The notes: generated from the letters alone by a model not told the origin. Positions 1 to 29,865 are shown, numbered from the stretch's first letter. The stretch: 32,000 bases of DNA from an uncultured Muribaculaceae bacterium (GCA_964523265.1 CAZFXQ010000003.1:1-32000), one strand, 5' to 3'. Translations and numbers: made by a program.

Positions 1-2484
1 ACCAGATAATGTAGGAGCACTTTGTCCTAGTTTTATATAACCTAATCCTACGTCAATTAATATTTGAAGTTTTCTTTTTATTTTTGGATGATTTTCAAAA
101 AATACGCAAGCTTCTTCAACTCTCATTTGAAGCACATCATATATTGTTTTTTCTTTATATTTTACTTCTAGTGTTTCTTTATTAAAACGTGTCCCTCCAC
201 AAATTTCACACGGAACATATACATCTGGTAAAAAATTCATAGATATTTTCTTTACACCATCACCTAAGCAGGCTTCACATCTTCCACCTTTAACATTAAA
301 CGAAAATCTTCCTTTATCATAACCTCTTATTTTAGCTTCTTTTGTTTCAGAAAAAACATCTCTTATATCATCAAAAACCCCTACATATGTAGCAGGATTA
401 CTTCTTGGTGTTCTTCCTATCGGATCTTGAGTTATATTAATTACCTTATCAATATTTTCTAAACCTTTTATAGACTTATACTTACCAGGAACAACTTTTG
501 AACCATAAATATTTAATGCTAATACTTTATATAATATTTGATTTATTAAACTTGATTTACCAGAGCCTGACACACCAGTTACTAAAACCAGTTTACCAAG
601 TGGTATTTTTACATTAATGTTCTTTAAATTATTCTCACTTGCCCCCTTTAATTCAATGTATTTACCATTACCTTTTCTTCTTTTTTTTGGTATTTCTATT
701 TTCTTTCTACCACTTAAATAATCACCCGTTAAACTATTAGTGTTTTGCATAACCTCTTCAGGCGTTCCACAAGCCACAACTTTTCCACCATGTTCCCCTG
801 CACCAGGACCTATATCAACCAAATAATCAGATAAACGCATAGTATCTGTATCATGCTCAACAACTATTAACGTATTTCCTAAATCTCTCATTTTTAAAAG
901 TGAATCAATTAGTCTTTGATTATCTCTTTGATGAAGACCTATTGATGGTTCATCTAAAACGTATAACACACCTGTTAATTGTGAACCTATTTGTGTTGCA
1001 AGTCTTATTCTTTGTGATTCTCCACCAGATAATGTTCCAGCACTTCTAGATAATGTTAAATATCCAAGACCTACATTATGTAAAAAATTTAATCTTGATT
1101 TTATTTCTTTTATTAAAAGTTTTGCTATTTCTTCTTTTTCTTTACTTAACTTTAATGTATCAAAAAAATTATATAATTTATCTATGTTCATATCAGTTAA
1201 ATCTATAATATTTTTTTTATTAATTAATACAGATAATACACTTTCTTTTAATCTTCTTCCCTTACACAAAGGACATGTAAGTTCCACCATATATTTTCCA
1301 AGCCATTCTCTTATAAACTCACTTGTTGTTTCAAAATATCTTCTTTCTAAATTATTTAAAATTCCTTCAAATGGTTCGTATGAATTCATGTTATTACCAC
1401 TTCTTGTTGAAAACTTAAATTCAATTGGTTCTTCTGTTCCGTTCAATACAATATCTAATTCTTTTTTAGTTAGATCCTTTATTTTCTTATCCATATCTAT
1501 ATTGTATTTTTTACAAACAATTTCCAATTTCTTTATGTATATGTTATATTCATCCATTCCTGCATAGGGTTCTATTCCACCACGTCTTAATGTTTTTTCT
1601 TTATCAGGTATGATCAAATCAACACTTATTTTTTGTTTAAAACCAAGACCCTTACATTCTGGACACGAACCATAAGGTGCATTAAAACTAAACAATCTAG
1701 GCTCTAACTCCTCTAAAGAAAAATCACAATGAGGACAAGCAAAAGACTCACTCATGACAATTTCGCTCCGTCCAGGAATATCAACTACAACTTTTCCTTT
1801 TGATAATTTACAAGCATACTCTAGTGCCTCATAAATTCTACTTTTTGCTTCAGCTTTTTTGATTATTCTATCAATTATAACAAAAATGCTATGCTTTTTG
1901 TTTTTTTCTAATTTTATTTCATCACTCAAATCATAATCTCTGTTATCTATCTTGACCCTTACATAACCATCTTTTCTTAAACTATCTAACAAATCTTTAA
2001 ATGTACCCTTTTCACCATAAACTACAGGTGATTCAATAATTATTTTTGTTCCGTCTTCTTCATTCATTATTTGATTTGTCATTTCTTCTATAGATTGACT
2101 TGATATTGGTATATTATGGTTTGGACAATATGGAACACCAACTCTGGCATATAAAAGTCTTAAATAATCATATATTTCTGTTACAGTACCAACTGTTGAT
2201 CTTGGATTATTATTTGTTGTTTTTTGATCTATTGAAATAGATGGTGAAAGACCTTCTATCGAATCAACGTCCGGTTTTTTTGTTCCTCCTAAAAATTGTC
2301 TAGCATATGAAGACAAACTTTCCACATATCTTCTTTGACCTTCTGCATAAATTGTATCAAAAGCAAGGGAAGATTTACCGGAACCTGATACACCCGTCAT
2401 TACTGTTAATTTATTCTTTGGTATTTCTATATCAATATTTTTTAAATTATTTTCTCTTGCACCTTTAACTATTATTTTATCCAC
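1..2484 (-). CDS. uvrA: Excinuclease ABC subunit UvrA, 3'-truncated by the window edge (828 codons present)
   Basis: Absent from the ORF track because it runs off the window. Manual translation from GTG 2484..2482 (AAAGGTG RBS 8 nt upstream) gives VDKIIVKGARENNLKNIDIEIPKNKLTVMTGVSGSGKSSLAFDTIYAE, the canonical UvrA N-terminus with Walker A. The in-frame codons at 30..1 read LGQSAPTLSG (ABC signature of the second ATPase module). The frame is open throughout. Confidence 0.95.
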   Translation of the reverse strand, partial: MDKIIVKGARENNLKNIDIEIPKNKLTVMTGVSGSGKSSLAFDTIYAEGQRRYVESLSSYARQFLGGTKKPDVDSIEGLSPSISIDQKTTNNNPRSTVGTVTEIYDYLRLLYARVGVPYCPNHNIPISSQSIEEMTNQIMNEEDGTKIIIESPVVYGEKGTFKDLLDSLRKDGYVRVKIDNRDYDLSDEIKLEKNKKHSIFVIIDRIIKKAEAKSRIYEALEYACKLSKGKVVVDIPGRSEIVMSESFACPHCDFSLEELEPRLFSFNAPYGSCPECKGLGFKQKISVDLIIPDKEKTLRRGGIEPYAGMDEYNIYIKKLEIVCKKYNIDMDKKIKDLTKKELDIVLNGTEEPIEFKFSTRSGNNMNSYEPFEGILNNLERRYFETTSEFIREWLGKYMVELTCPLCKGRRLKESVLSVLINKKNIIDLTDMNIDKLYNFFDTLKLSKEKEEIAKLLIKEIKSRLNFLHNVGLGYLTLSRSAGTLSGGESQRIRLATQIGSQLTGVLYVLDEPSIGLHQRDNQRLIDSLLKMRDLGNTLIVVEHDTDTMRLSDYLVDIGPGAGEHGGKVVACGTPEEVMQNTNSLTGDYLSGRKKIEIPKKRRKGNGKYIELKGASENNLKNINVKIPLGKLVLVTGVSGSGKSSLINQILYKVLALNIYGSKVVPGKYKSIKGLENIDKVINITQDPIGRTPRSNPATYVGVFDDIRDVFSETKEAKIRGYDKGRFSFNVKGGRCEACLGDGVKKISMNFLPDVYVPCEICGGTRFNKETLEVKYKEKTIYDVLQMRVEEACVFFENHPKIKRKLQILIDVGLGYIKLGQSAPTLSG

Positions 2485-2653
2485 TTAAATCACACCTTTA
2501 AATACATTTTAACATATTTTAACATATAAATTAAAAAATGGTTATGTAAATTACAACCATTTTTTAATTATAATAAAACTCTACTATCTATTATGTATTG
2601 TTTATTATGTTCTATATAATCAACATAATTTTACAAAAAAATAGTATTAAACG

Positions 2654-2685
2654 AAAAAAACTCTTAAGATTTTTAATCTTAAGAG
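2654..2685 (-). terminator. Rho-independent terminator after the PfkB kinase gene
   Basis: Perfect 10-bp inverted repeat CTCTTAAGAT/ATCTTAAGAG (2661..2685). On the minus strand it is followed by a T7 run (2654..2660). Confidence 0.75.
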
Positions 2686-2697
2686 TAATATTTTATC

Positions 2698-3624
2698 TTA
2701 CATTCTTTTTCTTAAAACCTTTTCCACAGTATTAAGATCAGGGCAAGAATCTTTTCCACCAGATTTTGTAGTTGAAAGTGATGCTGTTATGTTTGCAAAG
2801 TCTAATGAATCATGATATTTATAACCATTTGCTATTGCATATGTAAAAGCTCCATGGAATATATCTCCAGCACAATTAGTATCTATTGCTTTAAGACCTG
2901 AATTATATGCTGGTATAATTTCTACTTGTGAATCTTTTTCACAAATATATCCTCTTGGACCAATTGTTATTGCAATACCTTTTGCTTTTGGATATATTTT
3001 TTTCATTTTCAAGAACACTTCTTTATTATTTTCGTAGCTATCATCTATTTTCATATTAGTTATACCATTTGCGAAATCTTCAGAACAAATAATATAATCT
3101 ATAAAATGACATAATACCCTTATTCCTTCTTTTGGTCTTCCGGCATCTATAATTGATTCTGCATTTTCATTGTTCTTAATTAATGCAATGGAATCATCAA
3201 TATATTTTCCATCGGTCAAAATGAAATCATAACCTGTTTTACATTTAAAATCAAATATTTGAGGATATATATAATCACTTAATGATCTTGCTGTATTTAT
3301 TGTTCTTGTTTTATCTTTTGTATTAATAATTATGTGACTAACAGGTGTCATAACCTTATCAGTTTTAAACAAATGATCTAAATTCATATTCTCTTTTTGT
3401 AATTGCTTATATACAAAATCGCCCGCAGGATCATTACCTATTTGTCCGTAAAAATCCACCTTACCCCCAAATCTTGATACAACACAGGCTGCGTTAGCAG
3501 CAGGCCCACCAGAATTATAGTTAATACCTATGAAATCATTTCTTCTGTCTTCTTCAATAAAACCTTCTCTACTTATGGTCTCATCTTGCGTACTATTACC
3601 AATTATTGCAATATTCTTCATCAT
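2698..3624 (-). CDS. PfkB/ribokinase-family carbohydrate kinase
   Basis: 308-aa ORF. The N-terminal GG dipeptide region (NYNSGGPAANAA) and the C-terminal DTNCAGDIFHGAF motif match PfkB signature 2 (DTxGAGD). Confidence 0.85.
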   Translation of the reverse strand: MMKNIAIIGNSTQDETISREGFIEEDRRNDFIGINYNSGGPAANAACVVSRFGGKVDFYGQIGNDPAGDFVYKQLQKENMNLDHLFKTDKVMTPVSHIIINTKDKTRTINTARSLSDYIYPQIFDFKCKTGYDFILTDGKYIDDSIALIKNNENAESIIDAGRPKEGIRVLCHFIDYIICSEDFANGITNMKIDDSYENNKEVFLKMKKIYPKAKGIAITIGPRGYICEKDSQVEIIPAYNSGLKAIDTNCAGDIFHGAFTYAIANGYKYHDSLDFANITASLSTTKSGGKDSCPDLNTVEKVLRKRM

Positions 3625-3681
3625 TTTCCCTCCTTTCTTGCCTTCATATTATCATGACGAGTATTTTTAATATATACTTTT

Positions 3682-3701
3682 TTATCAAAAAGTGTTATAA
3701 T
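3682..3701 (+). promoter_or_regulatory. Putative LysR-box (TTAT-N11-ATAA) overlapping an extended -10 (TGTTATAAT) in the divergent kinase/LysR intergenic region
   Basis: TTATCAAAAAGTGTTATAA at 3682..3700 fits the T-N11-A dyad typical of LysR-type regulators. TGtTATAAT lies at 3693..3701. Confidence 0.3.
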
Positions 3702-3744
3702 CAACATGAATATTTTTTATATTAAATATAACCAGGAGGAATAT

Positions 3745-4641
3745 ATGAATGTTAGTTTTGATCTCTTAAGAATATTTAAAACCGTGGCTTACCATAAAAA
3801 TGTTAGTAAGGCTGCTAAGGATTTATGTGTTACCCAACCATCAGTTACAAAAGCTATTAAAAAGTTAGAAAACGAACTTAACATAGTTCTTTTTGTAAGA
3901 GAGAAAAAAGGTATGGTTTTAACCGATATGGGAAAAACACTATATAGATACATTGTTGATTCGATTAATATCTTAGATAATGCTCCACTTATTGCAAAAA
4001 ACATAAGTGAAAGTGATGTTGGTAAACTAAAAATTGGTGCAGGAGAATCGGTTACACGAAACATATTAAAAAAGACAATTATTGAATTTAAAAAATTACA
4101 CCCGGGTATTACAATTGAAATTTATAATTCAAGTTCGGACAAACTATATAATGATTTAAGATATGGCAGATTAGATATAATCTTTATTAACTCAACAATT
4201 ATTATAAATGAAAGCAAGTACATTACTTTTAAATTAACAGATATAGAAGATTGTTTTTTTACGGCGCCACAAATGTATAAAAAATTACAAAACGTAACAA
4301 ACCTAAAAGAAATATTATCAGGTTCTTTAATTGTACAAAACGAAAATTATGATACAAGAACATTTCTAGAGACGATATGTATGAAAAATAATATTCAGCT
4401 TAAACCAACACTACAAATGGATAGGCATAGCTTGTTGGTTGAATTTGTTAAGGAAAACTTGGGTATTGGTTTTGCAACAAAACAGTATATAAAAGACTAT
4501 TTAGATACAGGGGAATTAATGGAACTTAACGTTTCATTTAAAATAGAAAAAAGGCATATTAACTGTGTATACAAAAACAACAAAAACGAAAAAGTAAACA
4601 AATTTATAGAATTATTAAAATTTAATCTAAAAAATCAATAA
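3745..4641 (+). CDS. LysR-family transcriptional regulator
   Basis: N-terminal wHTH (LRIFKTVAYHKNVSKAAKDLCVTQPSVTKAIKKLENEL) followed by a substrate-binding domain of typical length. The preferred start is ATG 3745, with a GGAGG RBS at 3735..3739. The track ORF begins at 3706. Confidence 0.9.
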   Translation: MNVSFDLLRIFKTVAYHKNVSKAAKDLCVTQPSVTKAIKKLENELNIVLFVREKKGMVLTDMGKTLYRYIVDSINILDNAPLIAKNISESDVGKLKIGAGESVTRNILKKTIIEFKKLHPGITIEIYNSSSDKLYNDLRYGRLDIIFINSTIIINESKYITFKLTDIEDCFFTAPQMYKKLQNVTNLKEILSGSLIVQNENYDTRTFLETICMKNNIQLKPTLQMDRHSLLVEFVKENLGIGFATKQYIKDYLDTGELMELNVSFKIEKRHINCVYKNNKNEKVNKFIELLKFNLKNQ

Positions 4642-4672
4642 AAAGCAATTAAATAAATTATAATTGCTTTTT
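4641..4672. terminator. Bidirectional terminator between convergent LysR and HipA-like genes
   Basis: AAAGCAATTA (4642..4651) pairs with TAATTGCTTT (4661..4670). It is flanked by an A-run and a T-run. Confidence 0.65.
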
Positions 4673-5483
4673 ATATTATTAATTTTTTTTCTTTAATTAT
4701 ATCTTTACGCTCATTTATTAGTTCACCATAAATAAACTTTTCTCCACTATTTAAATAAATTCCTTTTTTTATTAAATTTTTATCTATCATACCAATATTT
4801 AAATTCATTATTCTTTTTAATAATTGCTGAAATGTTTTATCTTCTCTTATATAAGACAAAACACTTTCTTTATCAAGGTCAAACTGAAAATAATTATCAT
4901 TTTCATGGAATTTAGTAAAAAAAGACAATTCATAATCATATAATGGTAATAATTTTGCATTTTTATCATTAAAAGAAAACAAAAAATTATTTTCATGGCG
5001 ATCTGTTTGAAGTGTAATAAAATCACATATTATCATTTTCTTTAAAGCTATTATTAGCTTTTCTTTACTTTCTTTATTAAGTACTACATAATCTTTTTCA
5101 TTAAAGCTATATCTATCTAATGTTTTTAAATTTTCAATATCAGAAGAAAAGCGAACATTAAAATTGGTTATATATCCTATCTTTTGGTTTTTATTCGTAA
5201 ATAGTTTTGATAATAAGACAATGTTTTTTGTATCATATGTTGCAGGAATACTATCAACCGTCTGTACTTTTAAATACTTGGCTACTTCTTGGCAAATAAG
5301 TTCATTTATTAAATAGTCTTCAATATTAGCAAACGCTTCTCTTACATGATATATAATATTGTCTTTTTTTATAAAATATTGTAAATAGTTATTTTGACAA
5401 AAAACATTTTTATAATCCTCTTCTGTTAAAGAATAATCTTCGTACTTATTTAAAAGCATTAATTTATTTTGATCAATATACAT
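4671..5483 (-). CDS. Small HipA-C-like / PI3-4-kinase-fold putative protein kinase (hypothetical)
   Basis: 270-aa ORF. It has a catalytic-loop-like QTDRHENNF motif followed by LLPLYDYELSF, resembling the DxHxxN loop plus the downstream aspartate motif of HipA-C family kinases. Its ATG lies 2 nt after the uvrB stop (GGAAAATAAATATG). Confidence 0.5.
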   Translation of the reverse strand: MYIDQNKLMLLNKYEDYSLTEEDYKNVFCQNNYLQYFIKKDNIIYHVREAFANIEDYLINELICQEVAKYLKVQTVDSIPATYDTKNIVLLSKLFTNKNQKIGYITNFNVRFSSDIENLKTLDRYSFNEKDYVVLNKESKEKLIIALKKMIICDFITLQTDRHENNFLFSFNDKNAKLLPLYDYELSFFTKFHENDNYFQFDLDKESVLSYIREDKTFQQLLKRIMNLNIGMIDKNLIKKGIYLNSGEKFIYGELINERKDIIKEKKLII

Positions 5484-5485
5484 AT

Positions 5486-7435
5486 TTATTTTCCAACCTT
5501 AAGTTCAAATATTATATCACGAAGTTCCATAGCTCTTTCAAAGTCAAGTTTACTTGCTGCATCTTTCATTTCTTGTTCTAATTCTTTTAATAATTTATCA
5601 TTATTTGCTTTATCTTTTACATTTTTCTTTTTACTGTCTTCTATGTTAGCACTTACTATTTCTGTTATCTTTTTATTTATTGTCTTAGGAATAATATTGT
5701 GTTCTTCATTATATTTTTCTTGGACACTTCTTCTTCTTTTTGTTTCTTCAATAGCTGTTTTCATGGAATCACTAATAATATCACCATACATTATTACTCT
5801 TCCATCTTTGTTTCTTGCACATCTTCCTATTGTTTGAATTAAACTTCTGTGACTTCTTAAAAATCCTTGTTTATCAGCATCTAAAATTGCAACCAAACTA
5901 ACTTCAGGAATATCAAGGCCTTCACGAAGTAAATTAATACCAACTAAAACATCATATTTTCCTTTTCTTAAATCATGTATTATTCTAAGTCTTTCTAAAG
6001 TTTTTACTTCGCTATGTAAGTAAGCTACTTTTATGTTTATATTTTTTAAATATGAAGTTAATTCTTCTGCCATTCTAATCGTAAGTGTCGTAACAAGCGT
6101 TCTTTCCTTTTTAAGTATTTGTTTTTGTATTTCATCAATTAAATCATCAACTTGATTAGTCGACTTTCTAACATCAATTTTAGGATCAAGCAATCCTGTT
6201 GGTCTTATTATTTGTTCAACAACATGATTATTAACTTTTTTAAGTTCTTCATCGCCTGGTGTTGCCGAAACATATATAACCTGATTAATTTTAGATTCAA
6301 ATTCCTCATACATAAGTGGTCTATTATCAAGTGCAGAAGGTAATCTAAAGCCATAATCAACAAGCATTTGCTTCCTATTTCTATCTCCGTTATACATTGC
6401 TTTAACTTGCGGCAATGTTACATGAGATTCATCAATTACCATTAAAAAATCATCAGGAAAAAAGTCAATTAAACAGGTTGGTGTTTCTCCTTCTTTTTTT
6501 AATGCTAAATGTCTAGAATAATTTTCAACACCTGAACAAAAACCTGTTTCTGAAAGCATTTCAATATCGTACTTGCATCTTTGTTCCAAGCGTTCAGCTT
6601 CTAACAATTTATTATTTTCTTTGAAATATTTTAATCTCTCATCCAACTCTTCTTTTATATTTATTATTGCTTTTTTTAATTTTTCTTCACTTGTAACAAA
6701 GTGTGATGCCGGCATAATTGATATAAATTTTTTTTCTATAATTAATGCTCCTGTCAAACAATCAAATTCACAAATTCTATCTATTTCATCACCAAATAAT
6801 TCTATTCTAATTCCATGACTTTTCTCATATATTGGAATTATTTCTATAACATCTCCTTTTGCTCTAAAGGTTCCTCTTGCTAAATCCATAGTGTTTCTTT
6901 CATACATCATATTAATTAATTTTTCCAATATTTTATTTCTGTCTATTATGTCCCCAACTTTTAAAGTTAGCATGTGATTTTCATATTCTTCCTTATCACC
7001 AATACCATATATACAAGATACCGAAGCAACAACTATAACATCTTTATTATTTATAAGTGATGATGTTGCATAGTGCCTTAATTCATCTATTTCATCATTT
7101 ATTGATGCATCTTTCTCAATATATGTATCACTTGATGGAACATACGCTTCTGGCTGATAATAATCATAATAAGATACAAAATAGCAAACATGGTTATTAG
7201 GAAACAATTCCTTAAATTCAGCATATAATTGTCCTGCTAATGTCTTATTATGCGCTAAAACAAGTGTAGGCTTATTAACTTTACTTATTACATTTGCAAT
7301 AGTAAATGTTTTTCCTGTACCAGTTGCACCTAATAAAACTTGATACTTTTTGTTTTCTTCTATACCATCAACTAATTCTTTTATTGCTTCTGGTTGGTCT
7401 CCTGTAGGTTTATAAGATGATTTTAATTCAAACAT
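5486..7435 (-). CDS. uvrB: Excinuclease ABC subunit UvrB
   Basis: 649 aa. Begins [21 protein letters not shown], has Walker A GATGTGKT, a DESH box, helicase motifs, and a C-terminal UVR domain ([17 protein letters not shown]). Confidence 0.97.
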
Positions 7436-7533: not shown

Positions 7534-8613
7534 CTAACTATCTTTTTTTATTGTTTTTATCTTTTCTTTTTTTATTACTTTATCAATAATCCCATTTTCA
7601 ACTGTGTATATTGCCATTTTATATAATAATTTATTTATAATTCTAATTTTATTAGCCATCTCTGATGTACTCAATTGTTTATTTAATTTTATTTTATTAC
7701 TAACCAAAGAGATAAAATTTCTTTCTTCATAAGATAAAAAAGTAATAATTGAATAGTCAATAAATTCTTCATTGTAATTATCAATAATATTGTAAAAACT
7801 ATCTTTAGAATGATACTTTCTAACGTTAGTTGGTTTATTATATTCAACTTTATTATAATCATAGCTTTCACTTAAATCTTTTTTAAATTTATTTAAAATA
7901 CGGCTTATTTGAGCTTGTGTAATGTCATATTTTTCACCAATAATCCGCTGATTTGTCTCTCCGTTTATATAATCTAGTATTATGTTTTTATTCCTAATAC
8001 TATAGCTCTCTAATATCCCTTTTATTACAATTATTAATTCACATTCTTTTATATCATCTACAAAATCAGGTACTTTTATAAAATCTATACCATCATCATC
8101 TTTTATATAAATGCTTTCAACATTTATACCTGCATTCAACATATTTATTTCATCTTCAGCAATATTCAATAAAATTGATAATTCACTGATACTAATCTTT
8201 CTATTATACTTTTTTTCATATGTTTCACTTATATTACTAATAATGTTTAATAAATCTAGTTCTTTTCTTCCATAACTAATAACTCTGCATTTTGTTCTTA
8301 AATATGTTTTTATATATCCATCAATAATTGAGACTGCATATGATGAAAATTTAACATTTTTACTAATATCATAATTGTTAACTGCATATACAAGACCCAC
8401 TATTCCTTCTTGAAACACATCATCATACTTATCAACACTATTAATTCTACCAGCAAAATATTTATTAATCGCATGTTTAACAAGACTTATATTAGCTTTA
8501 ATTATTTTTTCCCTAGCTTCTTTTGTATTAATTTTAAATAGTTCTAATGTTTCTTTTTCATCCAATGGACTAAATTCATCAGATTTTATATTTTGTAATA
8601 CAAAACTGTTCAT
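7534..8613 (-). CDS. Sigma-70-family (group-3, SigF/SigG-like) sigma factor paralog 3 with a ~90-aa C-terminal extension
   Basis: Region 2 reads DVFQEGIVGLVYAVNNYD...FSSYAVSIIDGYIKTYLR. The region 4 HTH reads NQRIIGEKYDITQAQISRILNKFKKDL. The extension corresponds to nt 7588..7866. The preferred start is ATG 8613 (AGGTGGTG RBS), giving the MNSFVLQNIKSDEF N-terminus that aligns with the two paralogs. Confidence 0.8.
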   Translation of the reverse strand: MNSFVLQNIKSDEFSPLDEKETLELFKINTKEAREKIIKANISLVKHAINKYFAGRINSVDKYDDVFQEGIVGLVYAVNNYDISKNVKFSSYAVSIIDGYIKTYLRTKCRVISYGRKELDLLNIISNISETYEKKYNRKISISELSILLNIAEDEINMLNAGINVESIYIKDDDGIDFIKVPDFVDDIKECELIIVIKGILESYSIRNKNIILDYINGETNQRIIGEKYDITQAQISRILNKFKKDLSESYDYNKVEYNKPTNVRKYHSKDSFYNIIDNYNEEFIDYSIITFLSYEERNFISLVSNKIKLNKQLSTSEMANKIRIINKLLYKMAIYTVENGIIDKVIKKEKIKTIKKDS

Positions 8614-8680
8614 AATTATCACCACCTAAACAAAATTATTATGCTTATTATTATTTATCTTAGCAAGTATAATTAAATAT

Positions 8681-9739
8681 TCATTTGTTTTTTACTAATT
8701 CTTTTATTATAATTTTGTTGCTTTCTATTACTTTTGTTGCCAATCTTAATATTAATTTTTCTAATAATGGTTTTGCACGTGCACATAAGGTTCTACTAGA
8801 TTTTCTTTTGCCATATTTAGGATAGTAAGCTAATAAGATTTCTTTTTCTTTATCACTAAATATTTCATCTATTGTTTCATCTACTAAATTTCTATCATAA
8901 TTATTTGTAACATCATAAATTGTATCGTTTGTCTTAAACATTTTGCTTGAATCAACAAACTTTGGATTATAATTCAATTCTTCTTTTAACTTGTTTTTAA
9001 ATTTTATAATTGTGCGTGAAACATGTGCTTGACTCATATTGCATATTTTTGCTATCTTTGTTTGTTCATACTCATCAATATAATATAATTTTATTGCTTG
9101 TTTCTTATCATCATTAAATTCATTTAATACTTTTTCAATAATCATTTTAATTTCAACAGATAAAATTTCATCTTTTGTTTCACTAATCATAGCTTTCAAA
9201 GAAACTGGCTTTTCATTATTAATTACCATATTTTCTAAACTTATAGTATTTAGACCCAACAATTTTTTATTAATATCATCAACTGAAATATTAAGTAAAT
9301 TTGATATGGTGTCTTCACTTATTGGTAATCCTTTATTTTTATAATATATCTCTGATATATAATTAATACTATTTTGAAGGTTTATTGCTGATCTTGAAGG
9401 CCTAATAATCTTCTTTTTTTCTCTTGAAAAAATTCTTATTTTTCCTTCAATAATTGGTATTGCATATGTCGAAAACGAAGTTCCGTAATTAGAATCATAA
9501 TTATTTATTGCTTCAATAAGACCCAGTGCACCTTCTTGAAATGCATCTTCATAATCTTCTTCTTTAACTAACGTATTTAAATTAATTTTTGATAATACAT
9601 ACTTAATAAGTTTTAAATTAGCCTTAAATATTTTTTCTTTAGCTTCCTTCGTTCCTTCTAAAAATAGTATTTTTATCTCTTCATTTGTAATCTGATTAAA
9701 CTCTTCTGACTTTATATCTTTTAGTATAAATCTATCCAT
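8681..9739 (-). CDS. Sigma-70-family (group-3-like) sigma factor paralog 2 with a ~90-aa C-terminal extension
   Basis: Region 2 reads DAFQEGALGLIEAINNYD...FSTYAIPIIEGKIRIF. The region 4 HTH reads QTKIAKICNMSQAHVSRTIIKFKNKL. The extension (nt 8714..8980) aligns with the paralogs. The start lies 4 nt after the stop of the upstream giant sigma gene. Confidence 0.85.
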   Translation of the reverse strand: MDRFILKDIKSEEFNQITNEEIKILFLEGTKEAKEKIFKANLKLIKYVLSKINLNTLVKEEDYEDAFQEGALGLIEAINNYDSNYGTSFSTYAIPIIEGKIRIFSREKKKIIRPSRSAINLQNSINYISEIYYKNKGLPISEDTISNLLNISVDDINKKLLGLNTISLENMVINNEKPVSLKAMISETKDEILSVEIKMIIEKVLNEFNDDKKQAIKLYYIDEYEQTKIAKICNMSQAHVSRTIIKFKNKLKEELNYNPKFVDSSKMFKTNDTIYDVTNNYDRNLVDETIDEIFSDKEKEILLAYYPKYGKRKSSRTLCARAKPLLEKLILRLATKVIESNKIIIKELVKNK

Positions 9740-9743
9740 ATTA

Positions 9744-12700
9744 CTATCTATTAACGTTTCTTTTATTTATCATCAGTTTTTTAGAAAGCTCACCAGTACT
9801 ATTTAATATATTTGATGCAAATTTAGTTATCATATCTAATCCACTATTTAAATATTTTGTAATTATATTAGAATCAACTTTAAACATTTCTGATAATTCT
9901 TCAATCGTATACATCTTATCATCAACATATCCTAAAGCTAATAATAACAAAACTTGAGTTTTACTATCTGTCAAATTATTAATTAATAATCTAACACTAT
10001 CTTTATTTTGTTTAAAGACTTCATAATGAAAATCATTATAACTTTTATTTGCTTTAGTCTTTTTATCAAAATCATCTTTGTCTACATAATATAAATTATC
10101 TTTATTAATAATTTGTTCTTCACTTTCGTTTTCTTCTGTTATTGAATTATTTTGCTTTCTAATTTCATCAATACTCATTGGTTTACTGCATTTGTTTTTT
10201 AATTCAAAATCCGGATATGCCATCATTATTTTTTTAGTAAAAGGTAAAGTAAATATTGAAATATAATCTAAATCAATTTTTTCACCACTAGGATTCATAT
10301 ATCCTATGTTTGGCCATTTAATTTGATAAACATCATAAAGTATTCTTACATCAGTTTTTTCAATATTTGAAATTAATTTATCTAATTCTTCTATTGTAAT
10401 ATCTTCATTAAAAACTGAATGCATATCATCTAAATCTAGCTCTTGTTTATGTTTAATGAAATGATCATTAATTTCTTCGCGTGTTAATGACACCCATTTT
10501 TCAAATCTTGGTACCTGCAGATAATATTTATAAGCCAAATCTTTTTCACCTAATTCATGAAAAAATAAACCTATTCTTCGTATATTATAACTACTGTTAT
10601 GTTCAATATCTTGAGCTACCATAAAATCAAATTCTTTAATAGCTTCATCTTTTTTACCAAGTAAATAAAGAGCCTTCCCTTCCAATGACATTTTCCTTAA
10701 AATATTAGGTGTAATCTTATTCCCTTCAATATTTTTAAGTTCTTCTAAACATTCTAAATAATTACCACTGTCGAAAAAGATTAAGGCCTTAGTATAAAAA
10801 GCATCATAGTCTTTTTCATTTTTATCAATCGATTCATTTAAAAGACTAAATGCCATGTCATCCTTGCCAAGAAAGTGATAACACAAGGCTATTTTACTTT
10901 TATGATAATTTTTTTTATAATCAACTTTCCCACACTCAGAAAAAGTCTTAAGAGCTTCTTCATATCTTTCTTGAATAATGTAATTTTCACCTAATTCACA
11001 TAAAACATTATAATCTGAATTATATTTTAAAGTTTCTTTATAATACTTTTCAGCAAGCTGTAATTTACCACGCTTTTGATATATTGAAGCTATATTATAA
11101 TTAGCACAATATAATAAATAATTATCTTGCGTCATATTTAATAACTTTTTATATATTTCTAGTGATTCCTTAAGTTGAAATGGTGTTCCATTTTGTAATT
11201 CTGCTGCTTGTTTAAATAAATTATTAATGTATGAATTTAATGATTCATTTTTAATATCAGTTTTCTTTTCTTCAAAATTTTCTATTTCTTTTTCGTCCGT
11301 TATTTCATAACATACTATTTCATCATTTTCAATATTAGTAAAATCATATCTACCATTTTCATCTTTTTTAACGCAATTATAAAATTTCTTAATATTAGTA
11401 TCTCTTACTAATATTTTTTCATCAATAATATTATTATCTTTATCTATCTCAGTAATTCTATAAACATAACACTTTTTTGTAATTGAACCTTTTTCATATA
11501 TATTACCAAAGAAAACATCAGCATTTGATAACTTACATTTTGAAACAGTTTTTGATACAACTAAAAATCTACTATTATTTAAAATATATTTTGTATTTAA
11601 GATTTCTTTATTATTATCTTTTATTAAATCATAAATTTCACCTATATCATTAATACACTTTTCTTTTTTTATTTCTTTTTTAGTAATAGTTATTTTTTTA
11701 TTTTCTAATTGTTTATTAGCTTCTTCATTTTTCTCTTCACTAATTTGTTTTAAATATTTTTTTATTTCTGATTGGCACATTGATATATAATTTTTTGTTG
11801 TGTTTACTGTTATATTTAACTTTAATGCAATTTCTTCGATTGTTAATTTATTATAGTAGTAATCTTTAAATGCTATTATTTGTTTTTCTGATAAATTACT
11901 AATAATTAAATCTAAGGCACACTCATCTAAACTATCTAGCATTTCTTTAAAATTTATACTTTTCGTTTTTTTATTTACATATTTATTTTCTTTTTTTAAT
12001 TTTAATTTTTTTTCACCATTAAGTATACCTTTAATTTGCTTTTTTATATTATAATTAGTTGTATACATACTACTTGATTTTATACCTGTTGATGCTGCAA
12101 TTTCATCAATTGACTTTTTTTCTTTACCATTTAAACCATAATAACACTCTATAATTAATTTGTTTTTACAAGATAATTCATCAATAGCTTTTAAAACTTC
12201 TTCTTTAGTATAACCTTCAAATTCATTAAAAAAATTATCTTTCTTATCTTGGTTTATTTTTGTTCCCTTCTGTAATTTTAGTGTCTTCTTACCACTTAAA
12301 ATATCAATCACAAATTTTTTTGTATTAACTGCTGCCTGATAAACATTAGAATAATTTAAATTAAGTACTTCTGCTATTTCCTTTATAGAAATTTGACTTT
12401 TTCCATTTACACCATATAAGTATTCCATAATTTCTTTCTTTTTTTGGGGTAAAACATTAATAATACTTAACACACTTTCCTTACTATATCCTACAAAATC
12501 ATCTTCAATGTTGTAATTATTTTTTCTTTTTGTTTTATTTTCTCTTTCCATATTTTCACCATTTTCTATCACTTTTAATGCCATTTTCTCAACTAATTTT
12601 TCTATCAAAATATATGCTTTCCATTTTATATTTTCACTTTGTATAGTTTTTTTTAATTCTTTTATTGATTTTGGATAAAAACAGAATAATATTTCCTTTT

Positions 12701-13601
12701 CATCATCTGTAAATATTTCATCTATCGTTTCATCTATCATTTTTTTATCATAAAAACTTATTTTATCGTATATTGTTTGTTTAACTCTTTTTATTTTGCT
12801 ATTTTCTTCTACATACATTGGATTATATTCCAACTCTTTTAATAATTCTCGTTTAAACCCTCTTAATATTCTACTTACTTGTGCCTGGCTTAAAGATAAC
12901 TTTTCTGCTAATTCTGTTTGCGTTATAAAACCTGTGTAATACTGTATTATCGCTTCTTTTCGTTCGTTTGGATATTTATTTAATACCTTTTCAACAACTA
13001 ACTTTGTTTCTACTAGTGACATATCATCATAATCATAACTAATTAAATTTTCTAATCCACATTTATTATCAGCACTCAAACTAGATGAGTTCATATTAAC
13101 ATCAAAACTTAAAATATCATTACTAGAAATTGCTTGCGCAATTTCACTTTCTGATGTATTAAGTAGCGTTGATAACATTTTTGTGCTAATTTGTTTCCCA
13201 TACTTTTTTTCATATGCATCAATTAATAATGCAACTCTATATTTTAAATATGTTGCTTTTCTTGATGGTTTTATTAAATAAGATTTATCTCTTAAATATC
13301 TTTGTATTTCACCTTTAATCATTGGAACAGCATAAGTTGAAAATTCCACATTATAATCTAAATTAAACTCTTTTATTGCCTTTAGAAGACCAACTAATGC
13401 TTCTTGAAACATATCTTCATAATTTTGATTAGTAATTTTTTGTGAAAATTCTCCTAATACATACTTAACAAGTGGAATATTACTTTTAAATATTTTTTCT
13501 TTTGCCTCTTTTGTTCCCTCTAAAAACAATTTTTTTATTTCTTCGCTTGAAATTGTTTGAAATTCTTCTGATTTAATATTTTGTAAGCTAAATGTCTTCA
13601 T
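9744..13601 (-). CDS. 1285-aa sigma-70-family fusion protein: sigma core, shared extension, 3 sigma-4-like HTH repeats, unknown domain, TPR array, terminal HTH
   Basis: Uninterrupted 3858-nt ORF in a very AT-rich genome. aa 1-255 form a complete sigma core (EALVGLLKAIKEFNLDYNVEFSTYAVPMIKGEIQRYLRD; HTH TQTELAEKLSLSQAQVSRILRGFKREL). An AGGTGA RBS precedes the ATG. Domain coordinates are given in the findings. Confidence 0.9.
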   Translation of the reverse strand: MKTFSLQNIKSEEFQTISSEEIKKLFLEGTKEAKEKIFKSNIPLVKYVLGEFSQKITNQNYEDMFQEALVGLLKAIKEFNLDYNVEFSTYAVPMIKGEIQRYLRDKSYLIKPSRKATYLKYRVALLIDAYEKKYGKQISTKMLSTLLNTSESEIAQAISSNDILSFDVNMNSSSLSADNKCGLENLISYDYDDMSLVETKLVVEKVLNKYPNERKEAIIQYYTGFITQTELAEKLSLSQAQVSRILRGFKRELLKELEYNPMYVEENSKIKRVKQTIYDKISFYDKKMIDETIDEIFTDDEKEILFCFYPKSIKELKKTIQSENIKWKAYILIEKLVEKMALKVIENGENMERENKTKRKNNYNIEDDFVGYSKESVLSIINVLPQKKKEIMEYLYGVNGKSQISIKEIAEVLNLNYSNVYQAAVNTKKFVIDILSGKKTLKLQKGTKINQDKKDNFFNEFEGYTKEEVLKAIDELSCKNKLIIECYYGLNGKEKKSIDEIAASTGIKSSSMYTTNYNIKKQIKGILNGEKKLKLKKENKYVNKKTKSINFKEMLDSLDECALDLIISNLSEKQIIAFKDYYYNKLTIEEIALKLNITVNTTKNYISMCQSEIKKYLKQISEEKNEEANKQLENKKITITKKEIKKEKCINDIGEIYDLIKDNNKEILNTKYILNNSRFLVVSKTVSKCKLSNADVFFGNIYEKGSITKKCYVYRITEIDKDNNIIDEKILVRDTNIKKFYNCVKKDENGRYDFTNIENDEIVCYEITDEKEIENFEEKKTDIKNESLNSYINNLFKQAAELQNGTPFQLKESLEIYKKLLNMTQDNYLLYCANYNIASIYQKRGKLQLAEKYYKETLKYNSDYNVLCELGENYIIQERYEEALKTFSECGKVDYKKNYHKSKIALCYHFLGKDDMAFSLLNESIDKNEKDYDAFYTKALIFFDSGNYLECLEELKNIEGNKITPNILRKMSLEGKALYLLGKKDEAIKEFDFMVAQDIEHNSSYNIRRIGLFFHELGEKDLAYKYYLQVPRFEKWVSLTREEINDHFIKHKQELDLDDMHSVFNEDITIEELDKLISNIEKTDVRILYDVYQIKWPNIGYMNPSGEKIDLDYISIFTLPFTKKIMMAYPDFELKNKCSKPMSIDEIRKQNNSITEENESEEQIINKDNLYYVDKDDFDKKTKANKSYNDFHYEVFKQNKDSVRLLINNLTDSKTQVLLLLALGYVDDKMYTIEELSEMFKVDSNIITKYLNSGLDMITKFASNILNSTGELSKKLMINKRNVNR

Positions 13602-13637
13602 GGTATCACCTATTTACTTATTTATATAAGCAAAGAT

Positions 13638-13665
13638 ATTATACTTATAATTATTCATATGTCAA
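13638..13665 (-). promoter_or_regulatory. Near-consensus housekeeping-type promoter for the sigma cluster
   Basis: The minus strand reads TTGACA (13665..13660), a 16-nt spacer, then TATAAT (13643..13638). This is about 35 nt upstream of the giant sigma ATG and immediately downstream of a terminator. Confidence 0.55.
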
Positions 13666-13681
13666 AAATATTTAATTAATT

Positions 13682-13709
13682 AAAAAACCTTTTCTATACT
13701 TAGAAAAGG
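13682..13709 (-). terminator. Rho-independent terminator after the FAD-dependent oxidoreductase gene
   Basis: CCTTTTCT (13688..13695) pairs with AGAAAAGG (13702..13709). On the minus strand it is followed by T6 (13682..13687). Confidence 0.7.
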
Positions 13710-22778: not shown

Positions 22779-23483
22779 ATGATAAGTTTTATAATATGTG
22801 AAGATAACAAAGGAGCAACAGAGATATATAAAAGAATAATAAATAAAGCGTTGATAAAATATGACATAGAATATAAAATTTATACATTTGAAAAATATAA
22901 TGAGAAATTAAAAAAAATAATAGAAGAGCCACAAGAATTAAAAATATATATAATGGATCTTGCAATGCCAGTAAAAAGTGGTATAGAAATAACAAAGCAA
23001 ATAAGAAAACAAGATTGGGATAGTCAAGTAATAATACTAACAGCACACGAAGAATTAGAATTAAGAATGTTAAAACAAAAACTATTGATAATAGATTTTA
23101 TATCAAAATTTGAAGATTATGAGAAGAGATTAACAGAGACAATAAAATTAATAATAAAACAAAGAAAAAGTATGAATACAATAATAGTGAAATCAGAAAA
23201 GATAATTCACAAAATAAAACTAGAAGACATATTGTACATATATAAAGAAAATGGAAGTGCAAACACAAATATAGTAACCAAAACAAAAGAATATAAAGTA
23301 AGAGAAAGTTTAATTAAATTAGAACAAAAATTAGATAATAGATTCTGTAAAACACACAGAAGTTGTATAGTAAACAAAGATAAAATAAAAAAAATAAATT
23401 TTAAAGAAAAAGAAATAAGCATGGAAGGGAATAAAAAAGTAGATTATTTATCACGAAATTACAAGAAGAATCTGAAGGTGTAA
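22779..23483 (+). CDS. LytTR-family response regulator (AgrA-like)
   Basis: Receiver domain with the phospho-acceptor context IYIMDLAMP. The C-terminal LytTR DNA-binding domain reads LEDILYIYKENGSANTNIVTKTKEYKVRESLIKLEQKL...FCKTHRSCIVN. Confidence 0.88.
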   Translation: MISFIICEDNKGATEIYKRIINKALIKYDIEYKIYTFEKYNEKLKKIIEEPQELKIYIMDLAMPVKSGIEITKQIRKQDWDSQVIILTAHEELELRMLKQKLLIIDFISKFEDYEKRLTETIKLIIKQRKSMNTIIVKSEKIIHKIKLEDILYIYKENGSANTNIVTKTKEYKVRESLIKLEQKLDNRFCKTHRSCIVNKDKIKKINFKEKEISMEGNKKVDYLSRNYKKNLKV

Positions 23484-23485
23484 CA

Positions 23486-24802
23486 ATGGAAATAGAAAAA
23501 ATATTATATAGTATAATAGGAGGAATATTTCAAGGATTAGGGACAAGTATAATAATAAAACGCCAAATACCAGAAATAAGTACCAAAAGATTTATAATAA
23601 TAAACATAATATTAATGATATATGGATCAATATCAATTTTATATATAGATAATGAATTTAGATTTTTAAGTTTTTTGATGGTTGTAACAATAACAATATA
23701 TTTTATAGTAAAAATAAGAGATAAAAGAGCAATATTATATGCATTTATAACAGAAATAATAAATTCAATATCAGAAATAGTAATATCAATAGTATTGCTA
23801 TTAATAATAGGAATAGATTCAAAATTAATGATAACAGATTATAAAATCAATTTAATAGCAAATATAAGTATGTCAATGTTTGGGATCATACTAATAATGT
23901 TTAAAAAAACGAAAGAGATAGCAAAGAAGATAATAGGATTATTTGAAAAAAATAAAAAATTAATAAATTATTTTTATGTGTTTATAGTAGTATTGTATTT
24001 ATTGGTATTAAAAAATGGATTTGAGTTTTTAGTAAAAACAAATTACTATATAAATGTGTTATTTATACTAGGATTATTTGTTATTTTAGTAATGATGATA
24101 AGTAATGAGAGAAAAAAAGAAAGTTTAAAAGAGCAATATAAACAAATGTTAAGTTATGTAACCAAATATGAAAAAATAATAACAGAACAAGGCAAAGCAA
24201 ATCATGAATATAAAAATCAATTAATGGTAATAAGAGGATATGCTCAAATGAATAATATACCGAAGTTAACTGCATATTTAGATTCAATAATAAAGGATTA
24301 TAAGAAAACACAAAGTAGTTACTTAATAAAAGAATTAAATAAGTTTCCAGAAGGAGGAATAAAGGGATTATTATATTATAAGTTATCAATGATGGAAGAT
24401 GAAAAGATAAAATATATAATAGATGTTGAAAGTGGTATAAAAACAAAGTTAAAAGGATTAAAAGTAGAAGAATATAAAAACATAACAAAAATATTAGGCG
24501 TATTATTAGATAATGCAATAGAATCAAGTAAGAAATCAAAAAAGAAGAATGTAATAATAAACGTAGAAAAAAGTAAAAACGAAGTAATATTTAGTGTTTC
24601 AAACACGTACAAAGGAAAGATAAAAATAGAAAAGATAGGTACAGGATACACAAGTAAAGGAACAAAGCACGGATACGGACTTAAGTTAGTAAAAGACATA
24701 ATAGAAAACAATAAAGGATATGGTATGAATAATTATTTAGAAGATGATTATTATGTTTGTAAATTAAAAGTTAATATTAATAGGAAAACAAAAAGAAGTT
24801 AA
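23486..24802 (+). CDS. AgrC-like (HPK10-type) membrane histidine kinase
   Basis: About 200 aa polytopic N-terminus (6 or more TM helices), H-box NHEYKNQLMVI, N-box LLDNAIESS, G-box HGYGLKLV. It starts 3 nt after the regulator gene's stop codon. Confidence 0.85.
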   Translation: MEIEKILYSIIGGIFQGLGTSIIIKRQIPEISTKRFIIINIILMIYGSISILYIDNEFRFLSFLMVVTITIYFIVKIRDKRAILYAFITEIINSISEIVISIVLLLIIGIDSKLMITDYKINLIANISMSMFGIILIMFKKTKEIAKKIIGLFEKNKKLINYFYVFIVVLYLLVLKNGFEFLVKTNYYINVLFILGLFVILVMMISNERKKESLKEQYKQMLSYVTKYEKIITEQGKANHEYKNQLMVIRGYAQMNNIPKLTAYLDSIIKDYKKTQSSYLIKELNKFPEGGIKGLLYYKLSMMEDEKIKYIIDVESGIKTKLKGLKVEEYKNITKILGVLLDNAIESSKKSKKKNVIINVEKSKNEVIFSVSNTYKGKIKIEKIGTGYTSKGTKHGYGLKLVKDIIENNKGYGMNNYLEDDYYVCKLKVNINRKTKRS

Positions 24803-24825: not shown

Positions 24826-24951
24826 TTATCTTTCTATCATTGATTTAGGCATTTGTGGTTCATCAATGAAAACAAATGCACATCCTGCTGTAGCAGCACT
24901 TGCTACTAAAGCCCCTAATGCTGAAACTACTGAAATAACTATAGCTTTCAT
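24826..24951 (-). CDS. agrD: AgrD-like autoinducing-peptide precursor (41 aa), not in the ORF track
   Basis: Manual translation gives MKAIVISVVSALGALVASAATAGCAFVFIDEPQMPKSMIER. A perfect AAGGAGG RBS lies 7 nt upstream, and the gene sits 36 nt downstream of agrB. The sequence has an amphipathic leader, a single Cys plus 4 hydrophobic residues, and an acidic proline-rich tail. Confidence 0.8.
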   Translation of the reverse strand: MKAIVISVVSALGALVASAATAGCAFVFIDEPQMPKSMIER

Positions 24952-24987
24952 GTTTTTACCTCCTTATAATTAATTTATCTAAACACT

Positions 24988-25596
24988 TTAATTTGTGTTT
25001 AAACCATATGTTTTGTAATTATTATAAGGCATTTTAAAAGCCTTATATGTTAATGGCAATATTAATATACATTCTATTACAACACCTATTGTTAAACAAT
25101 TAATTATTAAGTTGTTTTTGATTATTAATGAAAAAACTAAATATATTAGTAAAACCATTATTGATAGAAGTTTATATTTTAATCTACGCTGTTTTTTTAT
25201 TAATGGTCGTTTTTCTGTATCTGCAGGTGCATAAATTAAAAATAATACTAGCATTGATATGTAAATAATAGTTATAATCAACTTTGGTATTATTAGAATG
25301 CTACATAAGTAAGCTCCAAGAATAAAAATCAATAAAGAAAAGGTAAGACAGTGCCAACTTTTTGATGCATGCATTCCAAATGCAAATAAACGAATAAAAT
25401 TATAAGTTAATAATAGTAAAATTAATTCCTTGAAGATATTAAATATAATTGCGACTAAAAATATTACAATAGCTTTAGTAATAGTTAAATATAAACCTTC
25501 AATACCATACATTATTTCATCTATTTTCTCTTTGCTATAATTCTTGTTTTTATTTGTAATTTCTTTTTTTATATATTTTAAAAAACGTTTTTTCAT
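24988..25596 (-). CDS. agrB: AgrB-family accessory gene regulator protein (AIP-processing membrane peptidase)
   Basis: 202 aa, polytopic. The conserved AgrB-type segment RLFAFGMHASKSWHC contains the catalytic-type His and Cys. It lies directly upstream of the agrD-like ORF. Confidence 0.85.
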   Translation of the reverse strand: MKKRFLKYIKKEITNKNKNYSKEKIDEIMYGIEGLYLTITKAIVIFLVAIIFNIFKELILLLLTYNFIRLFAFGMHASKSWHCLTFSLLIFILGAYLCSILIIPKLIITIIYISMLVLFLIYAPADTEKRPLIKKQRRLKYKLLSIMVLLIYLVFSLIIKNNLIINCLTIGVVIECILILPLTYKAFKMPYNNYKTYGLNTN

Positions 25597-29368: not shown

Positions 29369-29818
29369 ATGAACGCAGAATTAAAGAAAGTAAATTTTGA
29401 TAATACTGATTTTATAAAATTATGTCTGTTTTTAGAGCAAGAGCACATTGATATAGTAAAAGAGCAAAGAAGTCCTAAAGGTAATTGCTTAAATAATTCA
29501 GATAAATTTACCACTGTGTTTATTCAATATATTGATAATAAACCTGTTGGATGTTTAGCAATGAAGGACTGCATAAATAAAACTATTGAAGTTGGAAGAT
29601 TATATGTACTGCCTGAATATAGGCAAAATAAAATAGCAACAAAATTATTTCAAAAGGTTGAAGAATATGCTAAGAAATTAGGTGCAAATAGAATAATTTT
29701 AGATACTTATAAGAGATTTACTTCAGCGGTGGCATTATATAAAAAATTAGGTTTTTATGAAATAGAAAATTATTTAGATTATTCTCCGTATTCAATATGT
29801 ATGGAAAAGAAAATATAA
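29369..29818 (+). CDS. GNAT-family N-acetyltransferase
   Basis: Motif A region LYVLPEYRQNKIATKLFQKVEEYAKKLGANRIILDT. The preferred start is ATG 29369, behind a GGAGG RBS. The track ORF starts at a TTG at 29306, inside the repeat. Confidence 0.8.
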   Translation: MNAELKKVNFDNTDFIKLCLFLEQEHIDIVKEQRSPKGNCLNNSDKFTTVFIQYIDNKPVGCLAMKDCINKTIEVGRLYVLPEYRQNKIATKLFQKVEEYAKKLGANRIILDTYKRFTSAVALYKKLGFYEIENYLDYSPYSICMEKKI

Positions 29819-29865
29819 TTAAAATCATTATAAAGTTTAAAAAAGCAAAGGAGGGATTTTGGAAA

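Follow-up and report, generated by a model that had tools for sequence, protein, structure and literature searches.

A rare giant group-3 sigma factor with a conserved multidomain extension, and two truncated paralogs, upstream of uvrB in an uncultured bacterium

This study concerns three consecutive sigma-factor genes in a stretch of 32,000 nucleotides from an uncultured bacterium (GCA_964523265.1 CAZFXQ010000003.1:1-32000, deposited under Muribaculaceae), which in its entirety we call the window. All three lie on the minus strand. Gene 1 (9744..13601, a single open reading frame) encodes a giant sigma factor of 1285 residues and recurs identically or near-identically in the independent assemblies L001, L002 and L036. 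Gene 2 (8681..9739) encodes a short paralog of 352 residues, and gene 3 (7534..8613) encodes another of 359 residues counted from its ATG, the most divergent of the set. The start of gene 2 lies 4 nucleotides past the stop of gene 1 with no visible Shine-Dalgarno sequence, an arrangement which suggests that its translation is probably coupled to that of gene 1. Gene 3 follows after a gap of 67 nucleotides and has its own Shine-Dalgarno sequence, GGTGGTG, ahead of the ATG at 8613; an alternative GTG start at 8625 falls within that ribosome-binding site, and with the ATG start the protein is the same as P0160 in the gene calls of public assemblies.

The signals around the cluster are those of a single transcription unit. 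The upstream gene, which encodes a flavin adenine dinucleotide (FAD)-dependent protein, ends in an intrinsic terminator (13688..13709, minus strand; a 9-bp stem, a 4-nucleotide loop and a T-run) that insulates the cluster, and this is followed by a sigmaA-type promoter, TTGACA-N16-TATAAT (13638..13665, minus strand), which matches the consensus at 12 of 12 positions and is the only such match in the region. An earlier note on this DNA, made from the sequence alone, had reported both signals as well as the two short gaps free of hairpins, and we agree on each point, having found no terminator-like hairpin among the three sigma genes. On the downstream side, uvrB (5486..7435, minus strand) begins 98 nucleotides after gene 3 with no predicted terminator between them, and it is possibly co-transcribed with the cluster. 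The G+C content of the cluster (0.19-0.25) is slightly under that of the housekeeping flanks (0.27-0.30) and like that of the other accessory stretches of the window, which as a whole has ~25%.

As judged from their sequences, the three genes encode related RNA-polymerase sigma factors, each with a complete SigB/F/G-like core. All of them exceed the cut-off of 42.9 bits of the sigma-70 superfamily model TIGR02937 (118.3, 99.3 and 76.2 bits for genes 1, 2 and 3), align with the whole of the SigB/F/G subfamily model TIGR02980 (149.5, 128 and 112.9 bits), contain the Pfam domain Sigma70_r2 and keep every column that is invariant across an alignment of 16 sigma sequences, so that the first impression of three full sigma cores was correct; a Pfam match to region 4 is missing from gene 3. 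In gene 1 the core occupies residues 1-257 (sigma2-sigma3-sigma4; 12831..13601, minus strand), with the TIGR02980 match at 31-253 and Sigma70_r2 at 38-107. The three-domain architecture of group-3 sigma factors (sigma2, sigma3 and sigma4) emerges from structure-profile alignment, AlphaFold2 modelling and Foldseek searches. The best solved structure for gene 2 is SigF in its complex with SpoIIAB (1L0O_C, E 1.8e-20, residues 20-246), followed by S. aureus SigB; its model, with a mean predicted local distance difference test score (pLDDT) of 79.9, places the sigma2, sigma3 and sigma4 helices at residues 19-108, 116-161 and 189-255, and the best Foldseek matches of that model are SigB and sigmaS in holoenzyme structures. 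Assignment to a named sigma factor is another matter: the equivalog cut-offs for SigF (TIGR02885, 321 bits) and SigG (TIGR02850, 457 bits) stand far above the best scores obtained here (128 and 100 bits), and all three scores are also far under the SigB equivalog cut-off.

Two features of the cores concern kinship and promoter choice. The unusual N-terminal motif that had been noticed at the outset, M-x-x-F-x-L-(Q/K)-(N/D)-I-K-S-(E/D)-E-F, is indeed present in the alignments of all three proteins and persists in a looser F-x-L form in distant giants. The region 4.2 helix reads QAQVSR in gene 1, QAHVSR in gene 2 and QAQISR in gene 3, while the region 2.4 residues equivalent to A438, T440 and R441 of sigma70 are E/Q/R, K/R/I and Y/K/T, respectively. 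If these residues read promoters as they are established to do in sigma70, which we take to be the case, then the shared SigF-like region 4.2 and the differing region 2.4 suggest that the three cores probably recognise similar -35 elements but different -10 elements, and that the short paralogs thus probably serve other promoters.

What sets gene 1 apart is what follows the core. It is a very rare multidomain giant in which the sigma core makes up only the first ~20% and a conserved multidomain extension the rest. In all three proteins a shared helical unit runs ~90 residues past region 4; in gene 1 it spans residues 270-345 (12567..12794, minus strand) and according to the alignments is a degenerate sigma4-like unit that has lost its helix-turn-helix. 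In the model of gene 2 its helices lie at 283-293, 296-305 and 316-340 with a pLDDT of ~90. Its position and sequence equate the unit with the repeat that opens an array seen in relatives, minus the helix-turn-helix. Genes 2 and 3 are truncated paralogs that consist of the core and this unit, without the tetratricopeptide repeats (TPRs) described below, whereas gene 1 continues for another ~930 residues.

The first part of that continuation is a set of three sigma4-like helix-turn-helix repeats (residues 369-617; 11751..12497, minus strand), detected at 369-440 (R1), 458-527 (R2) and 550-617 (R3) with a hidden Markov model (HMM) built from the repeats of the relative P0004. The best Pfam match of each is Sigma70_r4_2 or Sigma70_r4, and only R3, with 31.4 bits, exceeds the cut-off of 25.7, R1 and R2 scoring 23.8 and 16.1 bits. 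The recognition helix of the second repeat is well kept among distant orthologs, and from their sequences the repeats might bind DNA or, alternatively, act as intramolecular decoys. They are followed by a beta-rich domain (residues 671-772; 11286..11591, minus strand) with predicted strands at residues 23-124 of the extension model (pLDDT 84-91), in which Cys 689 and Cys 764 are invariant and Cys 711 is at least 90% conserved in the family alignment. Next comes a TPR superhelix of ~8 repeats (residues 788-1053; 10443..11240, minus strand), recognised by Pfam TPR_1 and TPR_2, by PDB profile matches to consensus TPR proteins and OGT and by Foldseek, with predicted helices at model residues 140-405 (pLDDT ~90).

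A small alpha/beta domain (residues 1054-1131; 10209..10442, minus strand; strands at model residues 436-483) adjoins the superhelix. Its motifs MHSVF, YDVYQ, TLPFTKK and YPD form a conserved block in the family alignments, and of the histidines around its start H1047 is at least 90% conserved and H1051 and H1061 are invariant. An acidic linker that is predicted to be disordered (residues 1132-1185, pLDDT <50) then leads to a terminal helical, helix-turn-helix-like domain (residues 1186-1284; 9750..10046, minus strand; helices at model residues 538-636), which carries a conserved 'LIN.L..P.EQ..LLL.LGY' block and matches the repeat HMM weakly (E 0.11). The extension model was built from 13 family sequences and has a mean pLDDT of 80.8. 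Searched singly against Pfam, the degenerate unit, the beta domain, the alpha/beta domain and the terminal domain returned nothing below E 0.05.

This architecture defines a family. A word-indexed search of 5.8 billion proteins gave four relatives with the full architecture (P0002-P0005; 1275-2067 residues, ~32% identity), and HMMER with a profile of the extension found ~17 true members (clusters) among 1.84 billion cluster representatives, the remaining matches being to generic TPR proteins; none of these relatives bears a name. Members all come from uncultured low-G+C gut-type Bacilli, and among 185,579 species-representative genomes the family occurs in three metagenome-assembled ones, namely Bacilli bacterium HGM10826, an uncultured Clostridium sp. 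and bacterium S32M_St_metabat_59 (loci L008-L010). At 30-38% identity, P0002-P0005, P0014-P0019 and the giants of L008-L010 keep the architecture of gene 1, and the common design consists of a SigF/G-like core, the degenerate unit, 2-11 sigma4-like repeats and the beta, TPR, alpha/beta and terminal domains. Variants exist in both directions: P0003 (2067 residues) holds two sigma cores and ~9 well-scoring repeats in one protein, P0013 has a duplicated TPR/alpha-beta module, and P0020 and P0023 contain no sigma core, beginning at the first repeat unit and continuing with the beta, TPR and alpha/beta domains but without the terminal one. Two looser relatives, P0006 (1145 residues) and P0007 (1457 residues), embed sigma cores within 12-15 sigma4-like repeats and have no TPR module. 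Relatives of the short sigmas are scarcer still, as a metagenome scan and a profile word search recovered only the window's own and one further protein, P0010, the next matches being ordinary sigmas of 238 residues with ~30% identity. Within the collection of papers searched, we found neither giant SigF-like proteins nor sigma factors in which region 4 is arrayed in tandem described, which is weak evidence in itself. The giant sensor-fused group-3 sigmas are thus a rare family with no prior description found, here accompanied by two truncated paralogs in a slot upstream of uvrB that changes fast.

The settings of other family genes help to separate what is general from what is particular to the window. 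In L005-L007 the giant stands alone, directly after a gene for a 607-residue GATase/SIS protein (GlmS-type), and in L008-L010 it is again alone, after an open reading frame of 603-604 residues in the same position that is presumably GlmS-type too. L004 (8017..13828) has a 649-residue paralog ahead of a 1275-residue giant, with a SigK/E-like core, three repeats and the same terminal domain; the two C-terminal domains are nearly identical, which points to gene conversion or to a partial duplication that is recent. P0020 lies in L011 (6695..8605) downstream of SpoIIIAH, GerE-like and GerM genes and a tRNA, and P0007 (L037, 425..4798) adjoins ylbD (coat), ylbE, ylbF and a gene for a 347-residue protein of further repeats, and such neighbours indicate that the hosts are spore-formers. 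A terminator and a sigmaA-like promoter precede every family gene inspected (in L004, L005, L008, L009, L013 and the window), and known anti-sigma domains were found next to family genes in none of the loci examined. Within the window, domain searches of all neighbours gave no STAS, GHKL anti-sigma, SpoIIAB/RsbW, SpoIIAA/RsbV or other known anti-sigma domain. The earlier note had named the FAD-dependent protein and uvrB as flanks and remarked on the lack of adjacent anti-sigma and anti-anti-sigma genes, an observation that stands both here and in the locus of a sister species, L013.

L013 is the most informative comparison. Its flanking proteins are 85-93% identical to those of the window and its genes come in the same order: YitT-family, ftsE, ftsX, PcsB and FAD on one side, and uvrB, a 276-residue unknown, LysR, PfkB and uvrA on the other. 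The slot between the FAD gene and uvrB holds one short sigma alone, P0010 (364 residues), with its own TTGACA-16-TATAAT promoter (12 of 12) and no terminator before uvrB. It follows that the slot was ancestrally occupied and that the window species holds an expanded set, so the idea that the cluster was inserted into an otherwise sigma-free ftsEX-uvrB block has to be given up. A search for further genomes with the FAD-uvrB slot gave none, as FtsE, UvrB and the FAD protein of the window fall into 90% clusters of just one or two members.

The expansion itself is not young. Protein identity is 43% between the N-terminus of gene 1 and gene 2, 34-35% between genes 1 and 3 and 32% between genes 2 and 3, DNA identity is 64-68%, and the longest exact word shared is an A-rich one of 17 nucleotides; these low values mean that the duplications are old, contrary to the relatively recent event proposed at first. 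A neighbour-joining tree of cores, bootstrapped 50 times, unites P0010 with the three cores of the window (78% support); within this clade P0010 joins gene 2 (88%), and gene 3 branches deepest. The identity of P0010 to either gene 2 or the gene 1 core nevertheless reaches only 41-42%, and non-synonymous divergence (dN) between the paralogs and this L013 ortholog is 0.44-0.64, against 0.04-0.09 for flanking genes. Synonymous divergence is saturated in the flanking genes no less than in the paralogs, the proportion of synonymous differences (pS) having levelled off at ~0.53-0.6. This leaves dN as the one informative measure, and it does not distinguish very rapid evolution from the differential loss of paralogs that are old.

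Taking the observed gene structure, architecture, rarity, promoter and terminator, and synteny as the starting point, and adding regulatory steps every one of which is inferred, we propose that the locus is one sigmaA-driven unit of three old, divergent group-3 paralogs in which gene 1 is a 'one-component' sigma factor regulated by its fused extension, a proposal that we consider evenly balanced between right and wrong. The extension, with its sigma4-like repeats and its beta, TPR, alpha/beta and terminal domains, may stand in for the apparently missing anti-sigma factor. Transcription would be constitutive from the consensus housekeeping promoter, and the activity of the sigma factor would be set post-translationally, by analogy with other extension-bearing sigmas. 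The module of TPR, beta and alpha/beta domains would respond to a cue, be it a protein, a peptide, a metal or a redox signal, and this cue would change the grip of the extension on the sigma core or on the additional sigma4-like domains, which would take the place of a separate anti-sigma factor. More speculatively, the short paralogs could be controlled in trans via the shared degenerate unit. The existence of separate genes for 'core plus unit' (in the window and L013) and 'unit plus sensor' (P0020 and P0023) makes this unit a candidate docking element.

If true, the proposal would extend the 'one-component sigma' principle to group-3, sporulation-type sigma factors, as a conserved family of 1,100-2,070 residues, and it would raise the question of what additional sigma4 domains do in a holoenzyme. 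To our knowledge, regulation of sigma factors by fused extensions has been shown experimentally for extracytoplasmic function (ECF, group 4) sigmas only, and almost nothing is known about transcriptional control in uncultured low-G+C gut Bacilli.

Several observations weigh against the proposal. The cores fit their subfamily imperfectly, since all three fall short of the TIGR02980 cut-off of 234.35 bits, which the ordinary SigF-like P0161 passes with 238.9. TPRs are generic scaffolds, Foldseek searches with the extension model, dominated by the TPR part, returned generic TPR proteins alone, and the beta and alpha/beta domains match nothing known, so that the sensing role is an analogy. From the structure output, no inter-domain contacts could be read that would bear on the proposed autoinhibition, and the case for regulation by the extension is inferred from sequence and predicted structure in hosts that are uncultured. 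The short paralogs carry no extension, yet they have no visible regulator either. Finally, we compared co-occurring strains that differ very little (99.93% identity in DNA). One of them carries a premature stop in gene 3 (contig L001; G>T at 8262 on the minus strand, GAA>TAA, E118*), with the site intact in the window, L003 and L036, and gene 1 shows four non-synonymous and no synonymous changes where the FAD gene shows four synonymous ones. The counts are small, and together with the E118* allele they hint at relaxed or diversifying selection.

A bolder version of the one-component proposal, which we regard as unlikely though worth stating, takes the giants to be an undescribed class of group-3 sigma factors with 2-11 extra sigma4 DNA-binding domains in tandem and an on-board sensor composed of the beta, TPR and alpha/beta domains. 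Composite promoters with several sites would be read by the array, or else it would serve in cis as a decoy or anti-sigma element that is released by the sensed cue. The short paralogs would be controlled in trans, docking by way of the degenerate unit, and the three genes would make up a sigma/'anti-sigma-in-cis' network. Its evolution, 5-10 times faster than that of the flanks, could reflect arms-race or recognition-type selection.

The earlier note had put forward an alternative that survives in part, in which the housekeeping sigma alone drives a self-contained module without regulators that would work as a cascade, through hetero-oligomers or as a decoy. A single consensus sigmaA-type promoter, the lack of internal terminators and the absence of adjacent anti-sigma genes all agree with a self-contained unit, and the different -10-reading residues of the paralogs would fit a cascade; what finds no support is that it is free of regulators, because this leaves out the extra domains of gene 1, ~1,000 residues that are conserved and are obvious candidates for regulation from within. 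The giant moreover stands alone in most genomes (L005-L010), so that the trio is not the form in which the family as a whole functions, and the sister species has only one short sigma. We therefore consider this alternative improbable. Similarly low is the probability we attach to the view that these are extra, developmental sporulation sigmas derived from SigF/G and controlled in trans by partner-switching proteins of the spoIIA/rsb type encoded elsewhere. SigF, SigG and SigB are the best family and structure matches, the tandem partner in L004 is SigK/E-like and related loci of spore-forming hosts adjoin SpoIIIAH, GerM, GerE-like, YlbD-coat and YlbF genes, but the scores are far under the equivalog cut-offs (128 against 321 bits for SigF, where the SigF-like P0161 of similar organisms reaches 285), the promoter is of sigmaA consensus rather than developmental and there is no spoIIA-type operon.

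Weaker than either is the suggestion that genes 2 and 3 are decaying, non-functional partial duplicates of gene 1. It draws on the E118* allele, on the missing region-4 match of gene 3 and on the high dN of the paralogs relative to flanking genes, and is hard to square with intact frames of 352 and 359 codons in a stretch of 23% G+C and in several assemblies, with the retention of every sigma-invariant column, with a gene 2 model that is confident even in its C-terminal unit and with the short form being kept in the same slot of the sister species; we hold it quite improbable. No more credible is the reading that the slot is variable and holds a regulator of the conflict or defence type that evolves fast, whether MzaA-like or a sigma derived from a phage or mobile element, for although slot content and sequence differ sharply between species with ~90% identical flanking proteins, MzaA is weakly matched and the downstream gene for a 270-residue protein weakly matches PDC-M03A, the MzaA matches span the sigma domain only (at most 52 bits against a cut-off of 800), Mza partners, integrase and phage genes are absent and 2.9 million viral contigs give only generic region-2 matches.

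Two narrower candidates of this kind were rejected outright. A phage or mobile-element origin was discarded because neither the extension nor the short sigmas have relatives among the viral contigs beyond those generic matches, because no integrase or tRNA is present and because PHROGs gives the generic sigma family only, with scores similar to those of cellular models; a defence system was discarded because PADLOC yields nothing but weak MzaA matches to the sigma domain.

Turning to the surroundings, the neighbours of the cluster comprise genes for the FAD-dependent protein (PF21688), an M23/PcsB-type hydrolase, FtsX, FtsE, a YitT-family protein and alanine racemase, as well as prfB, uvrB, those for the unknown 270-residue protein, a LysR regulator and a PfkB kinase, and uvrA. 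In the window (1..7435) as in L013, uvrB and uvrA are separated by three genes, those for the 270-residue protein, the LysR regulator on the opposite strand and the PfkB kinase. The gene for the 270-residue protein (4671..5483, minus strand) comes directly after uvrB; its product is 73% identical to the L013 counterpart and has no Pfam or NCBIfam match, a 'TDRHENNF' motif that recalls kinase catalytic loops, and weak matches to the candidate defence family PDC-M03A (E 1e-10) and to phrog_3162. The prfB gene for release factor 2 (18903..~19990, minus strand) has the classical programmed +1 frameshift at 19923, where a short upstream frame ends in ...WRGL* at AGGGGA-CTT-TGA-G and the main open reading frame goes on in the +1 frame.

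Further away, a gene for a 319-residue KilA-N domain protein (29797..30756, plus strand) adjoins that of a GNAT acetyltransferase downstream of hpf and secA; KilA-N genes also occur in L011 and L012, and that of the window may be a mobile-element remnant. The window also contains a seemingly complete peptide quorum-sensing locus of the agr type, with AgrB (24988..25596, minus strand), a LytTR response regulator (22779..23483, plus strand) and a histidine kinase (23486..24802, plus strand). Just downstream of agrB, an AgrD-like open reading frame of 41 codons (24829..24954, minus strand; MKAIV...TAGCAFVFIDEPQMPKSMIER) shows a DEP motif after a Cys-x4 core of the thiolactone type. Rfam matches in the window were nil.

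Several known systems resemble this locus to some degree. RRNPP regulators likewise fuse a DNA-binding module to TPRs, and the host here is a Firmicute that, by its agr locus, has peptide quorum sensing too; unlike them, gene 1 has TPRs that match canonical ones rather than RRNPP structures, its DNA-binding part is a full sigma factor, and the gaps of 4, 67 and 98 nucleotides leave no room for a pro-peptide open reading frame. MzaA of the MZA anti-phage system is also a large protein with a sigma-70 module. Its profiles (NF041931 and PDLC02203) match here with 48-52 bits in NCBIfam and 29-34 bits in PADLOC, in the sigma domain only and far from the cut-off of 800, while the domain order differs and the window has no Mza partner genes. 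Cyanobacterial sigma-70 proteins with accessory NB-ARC, TPR_MalT or WD40 domains at one terminus have been catalogued bioinformatically (PMC11119718); phylum, sigma class and domains differ from ours, and the parts of that catalogue available to us do not mention extra sigma4-like arrays.

SigF, SigG and SigB, the group-3 sigma factors of Firmicutes, provide the best sequence, profile and fold matches, down to a region 4.2 that reads QAQVSR here and SQVQVSR there. Unlike them, all three window genes carry the C-terminal unit of ~90 residues, and gene 1 a giant extension; in place of a spoIIAA-spoIIAB-sigF operon, the neighbours are the FAD-dependent, M23/PcsB, FtsX, FtsE and uvrB genes. Given the failed curated cut-offs and the absent operon context, we do not file the window genes as SigF, SigG or SigB. 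In function, the closest concept is the extension-regulated ECF sigma factor. Among ECF sigmas without an anti-sigma factor, regulation is exerted by a C-terminal extension, which in ECF42 consists of ~200 residues of TPRs (PMC8999054). Gene 1 likewise has a fused TPR extension (residues 788-1053) and no anti-sigma neighbour, but its core is of the three-domain group-3 type, with a sigma3-equivalent region that two-domain ECF sigmas lack, and its extension, at ~1,000 residues, adds to the TPRs a sigma4-like array, two unknown domains and a terminal helical domain.

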